64,000 nucleotides of DNA from an uncultured Acidobacteriaceae bacterium (GTDB taxonomy: Bacteria > Acidobacteriota > Terriglobia > Terriglobales > Acidobacteriaceae): NCBI GenBank assembly GCA_963748225.1, contig CAVVHW010000015.1, positions 7,838-71,837 on the forward strand, read 5' to 3'. The stretch's first letter is position 1. Each line of letters starts with the position of its first letter. Below the pieces are notes generated by a model, which was not told where the DNA came from, did no database searches, and was given only the letters and a program-made list of their open reading frames with translations. This document shows positions 10,407 to 63,083 of this stretch, one piece after another. A program made the translations under genes and the position numbers.

Positions 10407-13043
10407 ATGGCAATTCGTTGGGATAAGTTAACAGTTAAGGCGCAGGAAGCCATGCAGCGGGCGAACGATCTGGCCAGCGAGAACGGTAATCCTGAGTTGC
10501 AACCGGTACATATTCTGGCCGCGCTGCTGGAAGATCGCGAAGGCATCGTCGCTCCTTTGTTGGAGCGTGTAGGACTGCATACCCAAACGGTGCAAGCCGA
10601 GGTCATGAGCGACATCGAGCGCCTGCCCAAAGTCTCGGGCAGCGGCTCCACGCAGGCACATCTCTCGGATGCCGCCCAGAAGGTGCTGGAGAATGCCTTC
10701 AAAGAGGCCGCCAACTTCAAGGACGAGTACGTCTCTACCGAGCACATGCTGCTGGGGATGACCAAGTTGAAACGCGATGCGGCACAGGAGATCCTGACGC
10801 GCGGCGGCGCCACCTATGACAACATCCTGCGCGGGCTGACCACGGTGCGCGGCAATCAGAAGGTCACCGACCAGAATCCCGAAGCCAAGTATCAGGCGCT
10901 GGAGCGCTACGCCAAGGACCTGACCGAGCTCGCCCGCCAGGGCAAACTCGATCCCGTGATCGGGCGCGACGAAGAAGTGCGTCGCGTCGTGCAGGTGCTT
11001 TCGCGCCGCACCAAGAACAATCCAGTGCTGATTGGCGAACCCGGCGTCGGCAAGACTGCCATCGTCGAAGGCCTGGCGCAACGCATCATCTCCGGCGACG
11101 TGCCCGAGCAGCTGAAGAACAAGCGCGTGGTGTCGCTCGACCTGGGAGCGATGCTGGCGGGTGCTAAGTATCGCGGCGAATTCGAAGATCGCCTGAAAGC
11201 CGTGCTGAAGGAGATTGAGCAGTCGCAAGGGCAGATCATCCTGTTCATTGACGAGCTGCATACGCTGGTGGGCGCGGGAGCGGCCGAAGGCGCGATTGAC
11301 GCCTCCAACATGCTGAAGCCGGCGCTGGCACGCGGAGAGCTACGCGCCATTGGCGCCACCACGCTGAACGAATATCGCAAGTACATCGAGAAAGACGCCG
11401 CCCTGGAGCGGCGCTTCCAGATTGTGTATGTCGGCGAGCCCAACGTCGAGGACACCATCGCCATCCTGCGCGGTCTGCGCGAGAAGTACGAAGTTCACCA
11501 CGGCGTGCGCATTAAGGATTCGGCGATTGTGGCGGCGGCTACGCTGTCGCATCGCTACATCTCCGACCGCTTCCTGCCCGACAAAGCCATCGATCTGATC
11601 GACGAGGCCGCGGCTTCGCTGCGCATCCAGATTGACTCCATGCCAACCGAGATCGACCAGTTGGAGCGCCGGGCGACGCAGCTGGAGATCGAGCGCCAGG
11701 CGCTGAAGCGCGAAGACGATGCGAACTCGCGCGAACGGCTGGCAACTCTGGAGAAAGAGCTGGCGCACATCAAAGAGGACGCCAATGCTCTGAAGGCGCG
11801 TTGGAAGCAGGAGAAGGAAGCCATCGCTAAGGTGCGCGAGGCTAAGGAGCGCATCGAGCGGCTGAAGCTTGAGGAGCAGGAAGCCACACGCAAGGGCGAC
11901 TACAACCGCGCGGCGCAGATCAAGTACGGCGAGCTGCCGCAGTTGGAAGCGGAAGTGGCCAAGCTAAGCGCGGCGATGGATGGCAAGCAGTCGCGCATGT
12001 TGAAAGAAGAAGTCGATGAGGAAGACGTTGCCAAGATCGTCAGCAAGTGGACCGGCATTCCGGTGTCGAAGATGCTGGAAGGCGAAGTGAAGAAGCTGGT
12101 CACCATGGAAGACCGTCTGCGCCAACGCGTGATCGGACAAGATGAGGCGATCCAGAGCGTGGCTAACGCCATCCGGCGTTCACGTGCTGGGCTAAGCGAT
12201 CCGCGCCGGCCGATTGGCTCGTTCATCTTTCTGGGGCCGACAGGTGTCGGCAAGACCGAGCTGGCGCGGGCGCTGGCGGAATTTCTGTTCGATGATGAGC
12301 ACAACATGATTCGCATCGACATGTCGGAGTACATGGAGAAGCATTCCGTGTCGCGGCTGATCGGCGCGCCTCCAGGCTACATCGGCTACGACGAGGGCGG
12401 GCAGTTGACCGAAGCGGTGCGCCGCCGGCCGTACGCCGTGGTGCTGTTCGATGAAATCGAGAAGGCGCATCCCGACGTGTTCAATGTCTTCCTGCAGATC
12501 ATGGACGACGGCCGCCTCACCGACGGCAAGGGACGCATCGTCGATTTCAAGAACACCATCCTCATCATGACGTCGAACATTGGTTCGAGTTATCTGCAGG
12601 ACCTCGGCGAGCGTTCGCCGGAGCAGATCTCTGACGCGCACCAGCGGGTGATGGAGGCGCTACGGGCGCACTTCAAGCCCGAGTTCCTGAACCGAGTGGA
12701 CGACATTGTCATCTTCAATCCGCTGGGCAAAGAGCAGCTCACGAAGATCGTGGACCTGCGGCTGGAAGACCTGCGCAGGCTGTTGGCCGATCGCAAGATC
12801 AGCCTGGAGCTGACCGCGAAGGCGAAGGAGCTGATCTTTACCGAAGGCTACGATCCGAATTACGGTGCGCGTCCGTTGAAGCGGGCCATCCAGCGCCTGG
12901 TGCAGGACCCGCTGGCCATGAAGATCCTCGACGGCGAGGTGCTCCATGGCGATCACGTCGTCGTGGACGTCGACAAGAAGGAGCACAAGCTGACGTTCAA
13001 AGTGGCGAAACGGGTGGGAGAACCAGCGGCGGTAACGAAGTAA
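10407..13043 (+). CDS. clpB: ATP-dependent chaperone ClpB
   Basis: It has a Clp N-domain, two AAA+ modules ([16 protein letters not shown]) and a long coiled-coil middle domain between them. Start chosen at MAIRWDKLT (ATG 10407) rather than the upstream in-frame start at 10329. Confidence 0.97.
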
Positions 13044-54228: not shown

Positions 54229-54288
54229 CTCACGGAGGAAATTGGCTATGAACGGAAAACTCCGCGCCTCTGTGCCCTCTGTGGTGAG
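54229..54288. repeat. short CACGGAGG-type inverted-repeat element
   Basis: ctcacggaggaaa ... ctccgcgcctctgtgccctctgtggtgag. Confidence 0.5.
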
Positions 54289-54916: not shown

Positions 54917-54966
54917 TTCACCACGGAGGGCACGGCGTTACTTTCCGATGCCTTCCGTGGCGGCAC
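54917..54966. repeat. short CACGGAGG-type hairpin
   Basis: ttcaccacggagggcacgg ... tgccttccgtggcggcac. Confidence 0.55.
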
Positions 54967-56624: not shown

Positions 56625-56662
56625 TTCCGCTCCTCTGTGCCCCCCGTGCCTCCATGTTAAAA
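56625..56662. repeat. solo right-end copy of the CACGGAGG-type element
   Basis: ttccgctcctctgtgccccccgtgcctccatgttaaaaa resembles the right terminus actccgtgccctccgtgcctccgtggtgaaaaa at 60549-60581. Confidence 0.45.
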
Positions 56663-56684
56663 ATACTCGCTACAATCGTCTGCA

Positions 56685-57938
56685 ATGTCTTTCCGCTTCC
56701 AGGTTGAAGCGCGCGATGGTGCAGCCCGCGCCGGACGTTTCTTCACGCCGCACGGTGAAGTCCGGACCCCCGTCTTCATGCCGGTGGGAACGCTGGCGAC
56801 GGTCAAGGGCGTCCCGCAAGGCACGCTGGAAGAGCTGGGCGTCCAGATCCTGCTGAACAACACCTACCATCTTTATCTGCGCCCGGGCGTCGAGATGGTC
56901 CGCCGACTTGGCGGGGTGCAGAAGTTCATGGCCTGGGACCGTCCCATCCTCACCGACTCCGGCGGCTTTCAGGTGTTCAGCCTCAGCGATCTGCGCAAGG
57001 TCACGGAAGAAGGCGTGGCGTTCCGTTCTCACCTCGACGGGTCATCACATTTTTTCAGTCCGGAGAGTGCCATCGCGGCCGAGATTGGCCTGGGCGCCGA
57101 CATCATCATGGCGTTCGACGAATGTACCGAGCATCCCGCGGAGTACTCGCGCACGGAAGCGTCGATGGAGATGACGCTGCGCTGGGCAGCGCGCAGCAAG
57201 AGGTATTTCGAAGAGCACAAACATGAAGTGCCGTGGTATTCACGCGGACTGAAGTCGGCGGGAGAATTTAATGTCGCGCTGAACGGCACGGCTGAAGCCG
57301 CGTCCCTTCAAAGCGAAAGCGAAACCCAAACGCTCTTCGGAATTGTGCAGGGCGGCATGTTTCCCGATCTGCGTCGTGAATCAGCGCAGCGGACAGTTGA
57401 GCTTGATTTCCCGGGCTATGCGATCGGAGGCTTGAGTGTCGGCGAACCGCGCCCCATGACCTACGAAATGGTGGACGCCGCCATCCGCTTCCTCCCTGAG
57501 GACAAGCCGCGTTACCTAATGGGAGTGGGCACGCCGGAGGAGATTGTGCACTACGTGGCCATGGGTGTGGACATGATGGACTGCGTGCTACCCACACGGG
57601 CGGCGCGGCACGGGTTGCTGTTCACTTCCGAAGGCCGCCTCACGATCAAGAACGCTCGCTATGCCACCGACGACGGTCCGCTCGACCCCAAGTGCGCCTG
57701 CCAGGTCTGCTGCCGCTATTCACGGGCTTATCTGCGGCATCTGTATGCCTCGAACGAGCTACTCGCGCAGGTGTTGAACACCGTCCACAACCTGGCATAT
57801 TACCTTGACACTATGAGGAGGGTGCGGCAAGCTATAATACTTGGGGAATTAGCGATTTTTCTTTCTGGCATCCGGCCACCGCATCTCCCACCCCAATCCG
57901 CGCAAAAGGGGCGCGGCTCGGGGACCCCGGAAAGCTGA
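56685..57938 (+). CDS. tgt: tRNA-guanine transglycosylase (queuine tRNA-ribosyltransferase) with repeat-derived insertion
   Basis: ARAGRFFTPHGEVRTPVFMPVGT, TDSGGFQV, GIVQGG, LMGVGTPEE, and the zinc site CACQVCCRYSRAYLRHL. An extra ~30 aa lies before GIVQGG. Confidence 0.95.
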   Translation: MSFRFQVEARDGAARAGRFFTPHGEVRTPVFMPVGTLATVKGVPQGTLEELGVQILLNNTYHLYLRPGVEMVRRLGGVQKFMAWDRPILTDSGGFQVFSLSDLRKVTEEGVAFRSHLDGSSHFFSPESAIAAEIGLGADIIMAFDECTEHPAEYSRTEASMEMTLRWAARSKRYFEEHKHEVPWYSRGLKSAGEFNVALNGTAEAASLQSESETQTLFGIVQGGMFPDLRRESAQRTVELDFPGYAIGGLSVGEPRPMTYEMVDAAIRFLPEDKPRYLMGVGTPEEIVHYVAMGVDMMDCVLPTRAARHGLLFTSEGRLTIKNARYATDDGPLDPKCACQVCCRYSRAYLRHLYASNELLAQVLNTVHNLAYYLDTMRRVRQAIILGELAIFLSGIRPPHLPPQSAQKGRGSGTPES

Positions 57939-58435: not shown

Positions 58436-60055
58436 ATGAATAAGAATCTCCTCCTCAAAACAGTTTTGATTGTCGCGGTGCTGATCTTCTTTCTCTTCGG
58501 CATCTTTGGAATCCCCGGGAGTCTCACCGGCGAAGGGTTGAAGGCTGCGGTGCAGAAGCGCATCCACCTGGGCCTTGATCTCAAAGGCGGGACTCACCTG
58601 ATCCTTCAGGTACAGGTCAACGACGCGGTCAACGCCGACAGTGACCGTGCGGTGGAACGGCTGAAAGACTCCCTGAAGAGCGCTAACATCGCCTTCGGAG
58701 AAATCTCCAAGCCCGACCCGCAGAACCACCCGGAGCTGATCCAGATTAAGGGTGTGCCGCCGGAGTCCTCGTCCGAACTGCGTCGCATCGTCAACGAGAA
58801 GCTGGGCGATTACGATCTCGCCTCGGGCGCTGAGAACACCTGGACTGTCACCATGAAGCCCTCGATCGCCAATGACACCAAGAAGAAAGCGGTGCAGCAG
58901 GCCATCGAAACCATCCGCAATCGAATCGATCAGCTTGGCGTGTCCGAGCCGGTCATTCAGGAGCATGGACTGGGCGACTATCAGATCCTGGTGCAGTTGC
59001 CGGGTGTGGACGATCCCGCCCGCGTGAAAGAGATCATGCAGTCCACGGCCATGCTGGAGATTCGGCAGGCGGTCAAGGGGCCTTATCCGTCGGAGCAAGC
59101 CGCCATGCAAGACAACGGTGGCATACTTCCACCCGACACGGTTCTGATGAAGGGCAATATGCCGCACCCGCAGAATCCTGATGAGTCTGGCGACGTGTAC
59201 TGGCTCATCAGCCGTTCCTCCGCGGTAAGCGGTGCCGACCTGCGTTCCGCCGATGCGGGCCGTGACGAGAACGGCCGCGCCGATGTCAATTTCACTCTAA
59301 CCGGTGACGGCGGACGGCGCTTTGCCGCCTTCACCGGAGCCCATGTCGGCGACAAGCTGGCCGTGGTGCTCGATAACAAAGTGAAGTCGGTAGCCACCAT
59401 TCAGGAGCAGATCCACGATACCGGCCGCATCACCGGATCGTTCACTCCTGAAGAGACCCAGGATCTGGCGTTGACACTGCGCTCCGGCGCACTGCCGGCA
59501 GGAATCAAGTACCTGCAGGAGGTCACGGTGGGGCCGTCGCTGGGGGCCGATTCCATTCGCGAGGGCGTGCGCGCGGCGGTCGTTGGCATGGTTGCCGTGC
59601 TCATCTTCATGCTCTTCTACTACCACGCAGCCGGGATCAACGCCGACCTCGGGTTGATCCTGAACCTGGTGATCCTGCTGGGATTCCTCGGTTACAGCGG
59701 TGCGACGCTCACCCTGCCGGGAATCGCGGGTGTGATTCTGACCGTCGGTATGGGCGTGGATTCCAACGTTCTGATCTTCGAGCGCATTCGTGAGGAGTTG
59801 CGACACGGTAAGACACCCTCTTCCGCTGTGGACCAGGGTTTTGCTCACGCCTGGACGACGATTATCGATACGCACGTCACGACTATCGTGTCGGCGATCA
59901 TCCTGTTCCTGTTCGGAACCGGCCCGGTAAAAGGATTTGCCGTGACCCTCAGCTTCGGTCTGGCGGCGAACCTGTTCACCGCGGTTTTCGTCTCGCGCGT
60001 GATTTTCGAATCCATTCTCAGTCGCCATCAGCGTGGCGAGCCATTGAGCATTTAG
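58436..60055 (+). CDS. secD: protein translocase subunit SecD
   Basis: N-terminal TM segment, a large periplasmic domain (LGLDLKGG, GVSEPVIQ), and a C-terminal 5-TM bundle with GIAGVILTVGMGVDSNVLIFERIREE. Confidence 0.95.
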   Translation: MNKNLLLKTVLIVAVLIFFLFGIFGIPGSLTGEGLKAAVQKRIHLGLDLKGGTHLILQVQVNDAVNADSDRAVERLKDSLKSANIAFGEISKPDPQNHPELIQIKGVPPESSSELRRIVNEKLGDYDLASGAENTWTVTMKPSIANDTKKKAVQQAIETIRNRIDQLGVSEPVIQEHGLGDYQILVQLPGVDDPARVKEIMQSTAMLEIRQAVKGPYPSEQAAMQDNGGILPPDTVLMKGNMPHPQNPDESGDVYWLISRSSAVSGADLRSADAGRDENGRADVNFTLTGDGGRRFAAFTGAHVGDKLAVVLDNKVKSVATIQEQIHDTGRITGSFTPEETQDLALTLRSGALPAGIKYLQEVTVGPSLGADSIREGVRAAVVGMVAVLIFMLFYYHAAGINADLGLILNLVILLGFLGYSGATLTLPGIAGVILTVGMGVDSNVLIFERIREELRHGKTPSSAVDQGFAHAWTTIIDTHVTTIVSAIILFLFGTGPVKGFAVTLSFGLAANLFTAVFVSRVIFESILSRHQRGEPLSI

Positions 60056-60062
60056 AGGCGTG

Positions 60063-60578
60063 TTCACCACGGAGGCACCGAGGACACAGCGTTTTAAAAA
60101 AATTGGGGAGAAATTCCTAGAAAGCTACGGAGTTCATGATCGGCGAGATGCAGAGAACGACCGGAAGGGTTGAGCTTATTGAAGCCGAGCTAACCGGCGA
60201 GATCATCGGGGCTGCTGTTTCTGTGCATCGGGAACTCGGGCCGGGTTTGCTTGAATCGACCTATGAAGCCTGCATGTGTCATGAGTTTGAACTGAGAGAA
60301 ATTCCGTTTCGCTGCCAGGTTGAGTTGCCTGTGGAGTACAAAGGCTGCCATCTGGACTGCGGATATCGCATTGACTTGGTTGTGGACAATCGTGTGATTG
60401 TCCAACTCAAATCGGTCGAAGGTTTATCGGCCATTCACGAATCGCAATTGCTCACTTATCTGAGGCTAAGCAGGCTACAGGTTGGACTACTTATCAATTT
60501 CAACGTTCCCATCCTGCGCAAGGGCATTGTAAGAAGAGTTTTATAGAAACTCCGTGCCCTCCGTGCCTCCGTGGTGAA
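60063..60578. mobile_element. TIR-bounded mini-element carrying a GxxExxY gene, inserted between secD and secF
   Basis: The left terminus 60063-60094 is ttcaccacggaggcaccgaggacacagcgttt. The reverse complement of the right terminus 60547-60578 is ttcaccacggaggcacggagggcacggagttt. The first 16 nt are identical and 28 of 32 match. The right TIR begins immediately after the cargo stop codon. Confidence 0.65.
60136..60546 (+). CDS. GxxExxY-family protein (PD-(D/E)XK nuclease-like fold)
   Basis: ELGPGLLESTYEACM contains the G-L-L-E-S-T-Y motif. RIDLVVDNRVIVQLKSV corresponds to the family's D...(E)xK block but has Gln where Glu is usual. LLTYLRLSRLQVGLLINF is the conserved C-terminal region. Confidence 0.85.
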   Translation: MIGEMQRTTGRVELIEAELTGEIIGAAVSVHRELGPGLLESTYEACMCHEFELREIPFRCQVELPVEYKGCHLDCGYRIDLVVDNRVIVQLKSVEGLSAIHESQLLTYLRLSRLQVGLLINFNVPILRKGIVRRVL

Positions 60579-60599
60579 AAATTAGCAAGGGGTTTAGCG

Positions 60600-61817
60600 G
60601 TGGAGTTATTTCGCGATACCAATATCGATTTCCTGGGCAAGAAGTGGTATTTCCTTGCCTTCTCCCTGGTGTTCAGCGTCGCCGGAATCTGTTCCATGTT
60701 GTTCTGGCACCACATCCCCCTGGGGGTGGAGTTCCGCGGCGGCACGCTGGTTTACGTCAAGTTCGCGCAGACGCCTGACCTTGACCAGATTCGTCGCGAC
60801 ATGGACCGGGCCGGACTGCATGATCCCCGCATCCAGCGCTTCGGTCCGACCGCCGACAACGAGGTGCTGGTCGATCTGGGTATCCAGGAAACCAGCGAAG
60901 CGGCGCTCGACAAGGGCAAGAACACCATCATCAAAGCCCTGCAGGTCCGCAGCCCGGTCGCCGAAGGCAAGCAAGACCTGAATAACGTGGGCACCGCCAG
61001 CTTGCAGCAGTACCTGCTGCAGAAAGACCCGCTGCATTTGGGCATTGACGCCGGTCCCAAGTATGAAACCATCGCCCAACAGATTGAGGACTTCCGCAAC
61101 AAAGAGCGCGGCGGCATTTTGACTTCGATGGATGAGCTGCGCGGAGTCGTTGCTCCCGAGGTAATCAGCGCGCTGCAGCAGGACTTCTACACCTCCAACT
61201 TTGTGGTGCGCAACGTCGAAATCGTGGGACCGCAGGTGGGCTCGCAGCTGCGCCGTCAGGCCATCATGGCCACGTTGTACTCGCTGGCTGGAATGCTGAT
61301 TTATCTATGGTTCCGCTTTGAGATGATTTACGGCGTGGGCGCGGTTGTGGCCTGCTTCCACGACACCATTATCACGGTGGGCTTCTTCTCCTTGCTCGAT
61401 AAAGAAATAAGCCTGACCGTGATCGCGGCCATCTTGACGCTGATTGGCTACTCGATGAACGACACCATCGTCGTCTTCGACCGTATTCGCGAAAACATTA
61501 AGCTGCTGCGTCGTGAACCGCTGGCCGATATTGTCAATAAGAGCATCAACCAGACACTGAGCCGAACCATCCTGACCTCCGGCCTCACCTTCCTCACCGT
61601 ACTTTCGTTGTACTTGTTTGGCGGCGAGGTGCTGCGTGGATTTTCATTGGCCCTGGTAATTGGAATCTTGATCGGAACGTATTCGTCGATTGCCGTGGCG
61701 GCGCCTATGTTGGTGGCTTATCAGGACTGGCGGTCCAAGCGAGCCGGACAGTCCGCGGCTCAGCGCACGTCGTCACCTCGTGACAAGTCTCGCGAAAAAG
61801 TGAAGGTCAAGGCCTAG
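60600..61817 (+). CDS. secF: protein translocase subunit SecF
   Basis: GTG start. FLGKKWYFLAFSLVFSV, GVEFRGGT, and a C-terminal TM bundle with GYSMNDTIVVFDRIREN. Confidence 0.95.
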   Translation: MELFRDTNIDFLGKKWYFLAFSLVFSVAGICSMLFWHHIPLGVEFRGGTLVYVKFAQTPDLDQIRRDMDRAGLHDPRIQRFGPTADNEVLVDLGIQETSEAALDKGKNTIIKALQVRSPVAEGKQDLNNVGTASLQQYLLQKDPLHLGIDAGPKYETIAQQIEDFRNKERGGILTSMDELRGVVAPEVISALQQDFYTSNFVVRNVEIVGPQVGSQLRRQAIMATLYSLAGMLIYLWFRFEMIYGVGAVVACFHDTIITVGFFSLLDKEISLTVIAAILTLIGYSMNDTIVVFDRIRENIKLLRREPLADIVNKSINQTLSRTILTSGLTFLTVLSLYLFGGEVLRGFSLALVIGILIGTYSSIAVAAPMLVAYQDWRSKRAGQSAAQRTSSPRDKSREKVKVKA

Positions 61818-62142
61818 GCATACCTAATCGAGCGCGGATCGGTCGCGACTTGCGAATAGGAGCTGCCGACCCAGGTAAATCGTGGCCGGTAGGATTTTGA
61901 GCAACCTCCGCTGGTATACGGTTCATCCGACTCGCCCAAGGTCGGCTGATTGGCCAGTACGCTGGATTTGACGCCGGAGCGGGCGCACGGGTGTATACTT
62001 CGGTCGCCGTTCTAGGACACTCGTTCCCAGATTGAAACACGACTTCTGTTTGACGAGTTTTCGGGTGCAATTTGTGGATTGTGGGAGCAAAAAACTGACA
62101 GACGGTGTCTAAGTAATCGAAGCATCAGACGGAGAACAGGCC

Positions 62143-63004: not shown

Positions 63005-63083
63005 TTCGCCACCGAGGCATAAAGGTCACGGAGAAAACTCGACAGAAAGCAAGACTCCGTGTTCTCCGTGTCTCCCTGGTGAA
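63005..63083. repeat. CACGGAGG-type MITE-like element between tonB and exbB
   Basis: ttcgccaccgaggcat ... cacggagaaaac ... ctccgtgttctccgtgtctccctggtgaa. The termini are inverted. Confidence 0.55.

Follow-up and report, generated by a model that had tools for sequence, protein, structure and literature searches.

The window analysed here is a stretch of 64,000 nucleotides from an uncultured Acidobacteriaceae bacterium (contig CAVVHW010000015.1 of assembly GCA_963748225.1), in which secD and secF are separated by a gap of 544 nt. The only long open reading frame (ORF) in this gap (60136-60546, + strand) encodes a protein of the GxxExxY family and is enclosed by an inverted repeat. The locus therefore raises the question of what kind of unit lies between the two genes, and whether the GxxExxY gene is its passenger or its enzyme. 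The best explanation is that the 516-bp unit at 60063-60578 represents a single copy of a DNA element that is compact and self-contained and is composed of an arm of about 30 nt, a short leader, a nuclease gene and an inverted second arm. This element is very widespread in bacteria and apparently so far undescribed.

The layout given in the initial annotation, with secD ending at 60055, secF starting at 60600 and the GxxExxY ORF and its arms in between, was confirmed by the ORF list and by profile matches. The upstream host gene secD (58436-60055, + strand; ORF list, with Pfam SecD domains recorded on the orthologue in L002) is separated by 7 nt after its stop codon from the left arm (60063-60094, + strand), which was read from the sequence and also recovered by a repeat finder and by a scan for triple units. 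This arm consists of TTCAC and three heptamer units on the + strand, namely CACGGAG (60068-60074), CACCGAG (60076-60082) and CACAGCG (60085-60091). The second and third units are degenerate compared with those of the relatives L002, L003, L006 and L008, whose units are nearer to CACGGAG. An A/T-rich leader (60095-60135, + strand) with GGAG at 60129-60132 and poor conservation among orthologues connects the left arm to the start codon of the GxxExxY gene (60136-60546, + strand, 136 aa), which was identified by the ORF list, profile matches and alignment. Between the left arm and the ATG (60095-60135), the search for sigma-70-like promoters was negative. The stop codon TAG occupies 60544-60546 and the 32-nt right arm (60547-60578) begins at the next base; on the minus strand it reads TTCAC followed by CACGGAG three times. 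The downstream host gene secF (60600-61817, + strand; ORF list) has kept its ribosome-binding region AAGGGG (60587-60592) on the 3' side of the element. Direct reading of the arm pair reproduced the match described initially, which is perfect over the outer 16 nt and covers 28 of the outer 32 nt, with the right arm directly after the stop codon; the repeat finder reported arms at 60063-60102 and 60539-60578 (40 nt, 83% complementarity, 436 nt between arms). As also described, there is no target-site duplication at 60063-60578 (0 nt), and a comparison of filled with empty secD-secF junctions shows no clean repeat.

The protein matches the families PF13366 (PDDEXK_3) over residues 18-133 with an E-value of 8e-42 (142.7 bits, cutoff 22) and TIGR04256 (GxxExxY) with 2.1e-43 (147.4 bits, cutoff 35). 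The only ORF of the element has no other Pfam or NCBIfam match and shows no DDE, HUH/Y1_Tnp, serine or tyrosine recombinase, in agreement with the earlier statement that the element contains no transposase. In the window copy the motif residues are G37xxE40xxY43 (G37-L-L-E40-S-T-Y43), D80, Q90-L-K92 and Q104xxxY108. We take the motif series E40, D80, E90xK92 and Q104xxxY108 to be that of the RecB/Cas4/lambda-exonuclease branch of the PD-(D/E)XK superfamily. The AlphaFold2 model of the window protein (mean pLDDT 77) has the alpha-beta order H-H-E-E-E-E-H-E-E as in the superfamily. A profile search of the PDB sequences found no relative of GxxExxY and a Foldseek search of the model against the PDB returned nothing below E = 0.1; the weak, non-significant neighbours were tRNA-splicing endonucleases at the top, Cas4 SSO0001 and lambda-type exonucleases. 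Since these are generic PD-(D/E)XK neighbours only, the fold supports membership of the superfamily and no more. GxxExxY thus resembles the RecB/Cas4/lambda-exonuclease branch in motif order and in its weak structural neighbours, but differs from it in having no Fe-S cluster domain, in its much smaller size and, in the window copy, in Gln90. The family is large, with 29,730 clusters at 50% identity (E up to 0.001) and more than 8,000 clusters at 90% identity around the window query. The protein matched 0 PADLOC families and no PHROGs, and the function of PF13366 is given as “Unknown” in a survey of the superfamily (Steczkiewicz et al., 2012; PMC3424549).

The replacement of the acidic catalytic residue by glutamine, which had been noticed in the initial annotation, was checked in an alignment of 121 sequences. 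Codon 90 (60403-60405) is CAA and encodes Gln in the window copy, as opposed to Glu in 120 of the 120 other sequences, without any variation at G37, E40, D80 or K92; the same CAA is found at codon 90 of L001, a public contig that was assembled independently. The acidic residue of the (D/E)xK motif is therefore missing in the window copy, although D80 and K92 are present. Besides Gln90, the window lineage shows no surplus of unique substitutions in this alignment. With Gln90, one would expect catalysis to be lost or greatly weakened and binding to be unaffected. The two-domain GxxExxY fusions P0241, P0242 and P0243 (about 270-295 aa), which were the top matches of a search of representative sequences, keep D...ExK in the first domain and have lost it in the second. 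Their arrangement suggests that GxxExxY may work as a dimer in which one active site can suffice. The C-terminus of P0242, SVVSSVSS, resembles read-through into an arm.

The same architecture was found in many bacteria. The scan for GxxExxY relatives was limited to one genome per species and kept 80 loci out of several hundred relatives, which were reduced to 77 by removing redundancy and loci with short flanks; a gene-spanning inverted repeat was counted if its score was at least 13 and exceeded that of every shuffle. Such a repeat is present in 66 of the 77 non-redundant loci, and the arms are built from tandem units in 59 of these 66. Arms thus bound most of the GxxExxY genes surveyed, but not every copy. 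The carriers belong to the Acidobacteriota, Planctomycetota, Verrucomicrobiota, Chloroflexota, Cyanobacteria, Desulfobacterota, Lentisphaerota, Bacteroidota, Omnitrophota, SAR324 and Bipolaricaulota, and the same layout is seen in a RefSeq record of Bacteroides finegoldii, a cultured species, where the element lies between radA and a FAD-dependent gene. The consensus arm is TT(C/A)AC followed by three C(A/G)C-N-R-AG units (C(A/G)CNRAG) with a period of 8-9 nt, and exactly three units were counted in 183 of 226 arms. Between elements the heptamer varies (CACGAAG, CGCAGAG, CACAGAG, CACGGAG, CGCAAAG, CACAAAG, CATGAAG and others), whereas it is uniform within an element, where 79% of the units correspond to the element's own majority heptamer compared with 27% if all units are pooled. 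The geometry is tight as well. In most loci the right arm starts 0-14 nt past the stop codon, and 6-40 nt separate the end of the left arm from the conserved domain (residue 18); the distance between first and last unit is exactly 426 nt in many elements. In many columns of the protein, 75-79 of the 79 sequences agree, with codons at maximal synonymous entropy. Because synonymous sites are saturated, the loci must be anciently diverged, with both the protein and the non-coding arm pattern kept by selection. A constraint at the nucleotide level within the ORF, an idea derived from the high identity of orthologues in the 3' third, was dropped because synonymous sites are saturated family-wide.

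GxxExxY is not the only protein-coding gene found in such arms, contrary to what was first assumed. In L071 (8430-9164), a gene of the Uma2 family (PF05685, 2e-20), which is also a PD-(D/E)XK family, is enclosed by arms that share both their type and their tight geometry with those around GxxExxY, and its protein matches the PADLOC candidate defence model PDC-S17. Uma2 was rejected as a regular alternative occupant: in L003, the Uma2 gene close to the orthologous locus (11644-12114) is not flanked by arms. Other arrangements of gene and arms were also observed. On plasmid 1 of Gemmatirosa kalamazoonensis (L287, 1300-1961), GxxExxY lies between two complete short hairpins (left-right, gene, left-right), so that the arms nearest to the gene face outward, like a RAYT gene (REP-associated tyrosine transposase, with REP standing for repetitive extragenic palindromic sequence) between REPINs. 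Two complete 432-nt GxxExxY elements with identical flanks are arranged in tandem in L079 (4994-6079), and L052 (4768-5588) has two ORF-deleted copies and then a full one, at intervals of about 22 nt. The chromosome of Desulfosarcina variabilis (L031, 1985-5882) contains more than 12 degenerate arm pairs of about 79 nt in arrays with a spacing of about 125 nt, just upstream of a GxxExxY gene that itself has no detectable arms.

Apart from the gene-bearing elements, there are short forms. In a survey of arm pairs covering about 1.04 Mb of loci plus the window, the lengths are bimodal, with 54-253 nt for pairs without a gene and 410-530 nt for pairs with GxxExxY. The direct repeats abutting 113 arm pairs measure 0 nt in 69, 1 nt in 29, 2 nt in 13 and 3 nt in 2 cases, which is at chance level, and the lack of a target-site duplication noted at secD-secF is therefore general among these pairs, none of which has one longer than 3 nt. 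The two short copies in L052 retain the first 24-40 or so codons of GxxExxY (E about 5e-8). Some short pairs of 54-69 nt, always a multiple of 3, lie in-frame within long ORFs (L015, 545-3523; L071, 1358-5050 and 5339-8410); of the host ORFs, one is large and methyltransferase-like, one encodes a helicase and one a DUF1156 methylase, and the peptides encoded by the short pairs include NHEDTKGTKGDDLRALRAFVV and HGDTEDTEKETLRDLRASVV. In the DUF1156 methylase of L071 the insert of about 20 aa is missing in 9 of 10 aligned homologues, and the remaining one has an insert of a different unit type at the same position. Deleting elements in silico in order to “restore” split genes gave many matches and was discarded as uninformative, as it fuses adjacent co-oriented genes (e.g., L071, 5016-5440). 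Viral contigs were scanned by arm pattern alone, and the matches listed comprise 120 loci with 1.06 Mb, to which all statements on viral contigs refer. They contain at least 107 arm pairs, almost all of 60-300 nt. Small ORFs in viral arm pairs of 305-810 nt have no Pfam match, and pairs of more than 900 nt that enclose ordinary phage genes are probably arms of neighbouring elements. No known transposase or recombinase was found inside the 113 and 107 arm pairs.

The window itself also contains short forms, which were located by a terminus search, the triple-unit scan and direct reading. The 16-nt terminus has 8 matches with up to 3 mismatches compared with 0.7 expected, and none of 100 shuffles reached 8. 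Together with the architecture shared by 66 of 77 loci, this bears out the dispersed element family proposed initially, and the five other places in the window at which the termini occur without the gene could all be found again. The first (607-733) is a short arm pair without a GxxExxY gene and with the unit type CACAGAG, overlapping a doubtful ORF of 156 aa (273-743); the other four lie outside long ORFs, and none of the short copies in the window is in-frame within a gene. At 54230-54287 a right arm with all three units (54260-54287) is accompanied by only a stub of a left one (54230-54238), and at 54917-54963 there is a very short, degenerate arm pair 28 nt past the end of an ORF. A solo right arm (56630-56661, minus strand) lies 23 nt upstream of the tgt start codon, and a short arm pair (63005-63083) is located between tonB and exbB. 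Counting the secD-secF element, the last 10 kb of the window hold five of the six arm sites. The solo arm at tgt is kept in place in L002, L003, L006 and L008, while the rest of the spacer is unalignable, and in L006 the matching left arm upstream of tgt is still present. In the window (56630-56687) the solo arm is followed by AATACTCGC TACAAT CGTCTGCA ATG; the -10-like TACAAT ends 8 nt upstream of the tgt start codon, a spacing that would suggest a near-leaderless transcript. L002 and L008 also have the short element between tonB and exbB, but L003 and L006 lack it.

At the secD-secF site, the same gene lies between secD and secF in L002/L007, L003/L004, L005, L006 and L008, which are metagenome-assembled genomes of Acidobacteriaceae. 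Compared with the window, these filled relatives are 89-98.5% identical in SecD and 81-93% in GxxExxY. The ratio of non-synonymous to synonymous substitution rates (dN/dS) among the GxxExxY orthologues at this site is 0.07-0.27, which corresponds to purifying selection; their arms are conserved, the leader from the left arm to the ATG is not. The insert between secD and secF is old, not recent. A scan of metagenomes for the SecD C-terminus provided 80 further loci, none of which has a GxxExxY gene in the secD-secF junction, and the states of these junctions vary. The comparison of junctions proposed in the initial annotation thus yielded empty sites, with a gap of 9-10 nt (GGGGCTAGCG or similar), in L088, L089, L096 and L102. 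The gap measures 54 nt in L086, while in L090 the spacer contains a short arm pair of about 127 nt in which all six units are CACGGAA. With empty sites at this junction and the same termini on other GxxExxY copies, neither of the two observations expected of merely local hairpins, a lack of empty sites and other copies without the termini, was made. In a neighbour-joining tree of SecD and SecF with bootstrap support, the window clade is filled (96%), the filled L003 is the sister of the empty L089 (100%) and the empty L086 is the sister of L090 with its short element (97%). From this pattern of filled, empty and short states it follows that at least two gain or loss events have occurred at the site. 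The mobility postulated initially is therefore supported by insertion polymorphism between relatives, but not by a recent arrival of this copy, which is shared by five of them.

The history of the site may include an exchange between lineages. The window element and its orthologue in L006 are 93-97% identical, as opposed to about 79-89% for the flanking genes, and the synonymous divergence (dS) between the two is 0.16 for GxxExxY and 0.98 for secF. Such values point to an element region that was recombined or exchanged between lineages. The spacer of L006 (4695-5465) is 769 nt long; in it, a short arm pair of 164 nt is followed by a duplicate of 49 nt from the 3' end of secD (94% identical) and then by the GxxExxY element. 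Its first junction (TAG AGGCGTG TTCACC) is that of the window and its second resembles the type of L002 and L008. As a whole, the spacer has the appearance of either a tandem duplication or a recombination product of two alleles. In other Acidobacteria (L122, L099, L132, L141, L160, L097 and L152), the secD-secF spacers contain hairpins of 90-180 nt with other sequence, whose arms are tandem 6-8-mers such as GGTCGTT, GTTTCAAG, CATTGAG, CCAGCT and others. Such inverted arrays, built of short tandem units, may form a class of repeats broader than the one associated with GxxExxY.

Our preferred interpretation is that GxxExxY elements constitute a nuclease-plus-repeat system that is driven by a PD-(D/E)XK nuclease and resembles REP/RAYT or the insertion sequences (IS) with their MITEs (miniature inverted-repeat transposable elements), although we put its probability at slightly below an even chance. 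The link between GxxExxY and the arms is drawn from the tight geometry, the joint conservation, the uniform units within an element and the fact that no other enzyme was found. The protein is highly conserved at saturated synonymous sites and always fills the space between the arms, so that GxxExxY appears to be the element's own enzyme and the initial wording of “passenger” or “cargo” is probably wrong. In the mechanism proposed here, the nuclease, probably as a dimer, would recognise the repeated heptamers of both arms and cut at or near the TT(C/A)AC termini, and host functions of repair or replication would complete the move, which would explain the missing target duplication. The same nuclease would also work in trans on the short arm pairs, which are far more numerous, in analogy to RAYT and REP/REPIN or to IS and MITEs. 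The secD-secF copy would have entered the spacer in an Acidobacteriaceae lineage long ago, would have been inherited since and is probably transcribed with the operon. In view of Gln at the position of the ExK glutamate and the partly decayed left arm, the window copy is most likely catalytically impaired and immobile.

A number of observations weigh against this interpretation. A nuclease of about 120 aa cannot perform strand transfer alone, so that the rejoining step is hypothetical, and the loci that show the association of gene and arms were chosen via the gene. Plasmids contain almost no GxxExxY (7 of 72,556 records, all of them predicted to be non-mobilisable); together with the lack of a PHROG match this is unusual for a mobile gene, because the family is huge and occurs in many phyla. 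No GxxExxY gene was found in the arm-selected viral contigs, and blastx for ORF remnants in the short elements was positive only in L052, the one locus that documents a descent by deletion. The clustering of short elements around GxxExxY genes, with 17.2 per 100 kb up to 1 kb away and 2.4 at a distance of 4-5 kb, supports the interpretation, but it is driven by a few tandem arrays (L031, L056 and L068). The single Uma2 occupant fits an interchangeable cargo as well as an alternative nuclease. For the window copy, inheritance has been stable and nothing indicates a recent move. Furthermore, GxxExxY is co-oriented with its neighbours at a ratio of 54:11 upstream and 52:10 downstream (crude ORF calls), which is equally expected of an element acting at the RNA level; by analogy to IS200/IS605, strand-specific integration into single-stranded DNA would likewise give co-orientation.

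A comparison with known systems shows where the proposed one would be placed. With REP/REPIN-RAYT it shares a small nuclease-type gene flanked by inverted copies of a short repeat, which is dispersed in far greater numbers and often in hairpin-forming inverted pairs, the lack of a target duplication, the vertical inheritance of the gene at a fixed site (here in five relatives) and a repeat sequence that varies between genomes and is uniform within one. It differs in its enzyme, which is a PD-(D/E)XK nuclease instead of a HUH/Y1 transposase related to the TnpA of IS200/IS605, and in its arm of three tandem heptamers, as REP is a single palindrome with a GTAG head. REP is also strictly extragenic, whereas short copies are found here in-frame in genes (L015, L071) and in viral contigs, and GxxExxY genes are often multi-copy and even in tandem (L079, L052). 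IS and their MITEs (Correia/NEMIS, Nezha, QMITE) have in common with the GxxExxY elements the terminal inverted repeats, the bimodal sizes, the insertion polymorphism between relatives, at least one documented derivative by internal deletion (L052) and the short copies that far outnumber the gene-bearing ones. Unlike them, there is no DDE, HUH, serine or tyrosine recombinase here and no target duplication, and the whole “autonomous” form is only about 430-520 bp long; IS200, with about 700 bp, is among the smallest IS elements known. The in-frame copies of 54-69 nt in L015 and L071 resemble by their layout the Rickettsia palindromic elements (RPEs), short palindromic in-frame inserts that are read through as an extra peptide, and the insert-free homologues confirm this for the copy in the L071 methylase. 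RPEs, however, have no known associated enzyme gene, are about 100-150 bp long and occur in Rickettsia only.

An explanation by homing reverses the order of events. The hairpin elements would be older, and a free-standing PD-(D/E)XK homing endonuclease gene would cut empty hairpins and be copied into them by repair, so that the secD-secF copy would be a hairpin element that was invaded later and whose arms served as repair homology. We regard this explanation, in both its general form and its application to secD-secF, as unlikely but worth serious consideration. PD-(D/E)XK homing endonucleases of about 150 aa exist, e.g., I-Ssp6803I, and with such enzymes and free-standing genes GxxExxY shares the fold class, a length of about 120-150 aa, the character of a selfish insert, the presence or absence at a fixed site in related genomes and the missing target duplication. 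Homing would agree with L090, which has only a short arm pair at a site that bears the gene in others, with the scarcity of ORF remnants in short elements and with a second nuclease family in the same arms (Uma2 in L071), and the low dS between the window and L006 elements relative to secF could reflect copying between genomes. However, the heptamer of L090 (CACGGAA) differs from that of the gene-bearing relatives, and in L052 the change went the other way, as the ORF was deleted. Short elements have interiors of widely differing sequence and length (4 to about 200 nt) with no conserved central cleavage site apparent, and arms of about 30 bp offer very little homology for repair. No intron or intein is apparent at this locus, with no Rfam family in 59000-62000, and GxxExxY may be free-standing; in contrast to homing endonuclease genes, the insert has its own inverted arms, which are also dispersed alone.

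Another possibility is that the arms act in RNA. They would pair in the secD-GxxExxY-secF mRNA as a long interrupted stem around the ORF, which would be cut by RNase III or by GxxExxY; this cutting would uncouple or stabilise the flanking cistrons and control the expression of the nuclease, and the short copies would be RNA hairpins of the REP or Correia type. The co-orientation mentioned above, the lack of a promoter-like site between the left arm and the ATG, and the solo right arm at tgt, conserved in five genomes within a spacer that is not, are consistent with such a role, as are the tRNA-splicing endonucleases among the weak structural matches, although these are not significant. The minimum-free-energy fold of 60050-60610 pairs both arms, but the z-score of the whole region is only -1.68. 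When the two arms of an element are compared, the units mismatch at 5.6% of positions, a figure that is lowered by the three unit positions fixed by the search pattern, and the one freely variable unit position mismatches at 26%. The spacers of 1-2 nt mismatch at 57%, which is roughly random for purine-rich spacers, and the mismatches have no sense-strand G-U bias, with 51 (A,G) against 47 (G,A). Identical units within each arm, which pairing does not demand, non-complementary spacers and symmetric mismatches favour the sequence-specific recognition of heptamers over simple pairing. A search of 59000-62000 against Rfam at a permissive E-value gave only a chance match to a snoRNA and no RNA family, intron or rRNA. 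Thus, an rRNA intervening sequence (IVS) with an ORF was ruled out as well, as the element lies between secD and secF and no rRNA match was found. The in-frame copies and the presence or absence of elements between relatives are DNA-level events, so that a role in RNA would be additional to mobility and not an alternative to it; as an explanation in its own right, we consider it improbable.

The elements could also be MITE-like shells whose arms are recognised by an unlinked transposase or recombinase, and in which GxxExxY and occasionally Uma2 merely ride along, for instance as a toxin, a restriction-like protein or a defence gene. The short elements do outnumber the gene-bearing ones greatly, the 1.06 Mb of viral contigs has arms but no GxxExxY among the matches listed, and the Uma2 protein found once in the same arms matches a candidate defence model. 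On the other hand, GxxExxY itself has no PADLOC match, no recognisable transposase is present in the surveyed arm pairs, and one and the same protein of about 120 aa in tight geometry and under strong purifying selection across phyla would be unexpected of a passenger. Passive transport, with whatever function of the passenger, therefore seems to us quite improbable and somewhat more so than a role in RNA. Chance or local terminator hairpins without any family, for which only the small size of the arms could be cited, are practically excluded by the 8 terminus matches against 0.7 expected, by the architecture in 66 of 77 loci and by the lack of terminator-like sites on the arms, which are followed by A-runs and not by a T-run, the sole terminator-like match in the region lying inside secD (59980).

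Returning to the nuclease-plus-repeat system, it would be possible, though we would not yet count on it, to regard the GxxExxY cassettes as an unrecognised class of autonomous bacterial mobile elements, the smallest by the IS sizes known to us (about 430-520 bp), which use a dimeric RecB/Cas4-like nuclease and are the parents of hairpin repeats. No description of the arms, of the link between GxxExxY and the arms or of a function of PF13366 was found in the literature, where subscription journals and the family notes of databases were thinly covered and an earlier mention elsewhere is possible, and a 2024 review of prokaryotic MITEs does not mention the association. For genome annotation, reading through the arms can lead to spurious N- or C-terminal extensions and to inserts of the “TEDTE / HGGHG / SVVS” type in predicted proteins, and short elements split or pad operons and genes. 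In the organism studied here, an essential translocon operon has long tolerated the insert, and the resident copy appears to be without one catalytic residue. For the family, the conserved DNA signature around the gene suggests both a substrate, the heptamer arms, and a class of mechanism, a nuclease with dispersed hairpin repeats, which could be studied in tractable hosts such as Bacteroides and cyanobacteria. If the proposal is true, a second, unrelated class of enzyme would have adopted the REP/RAYT way of life, a family of 29,730 clusters would gain a function, and the hairpin repeats that occur in many phyla in spacers, in-frame in genes and in phage genomes would have a parent.

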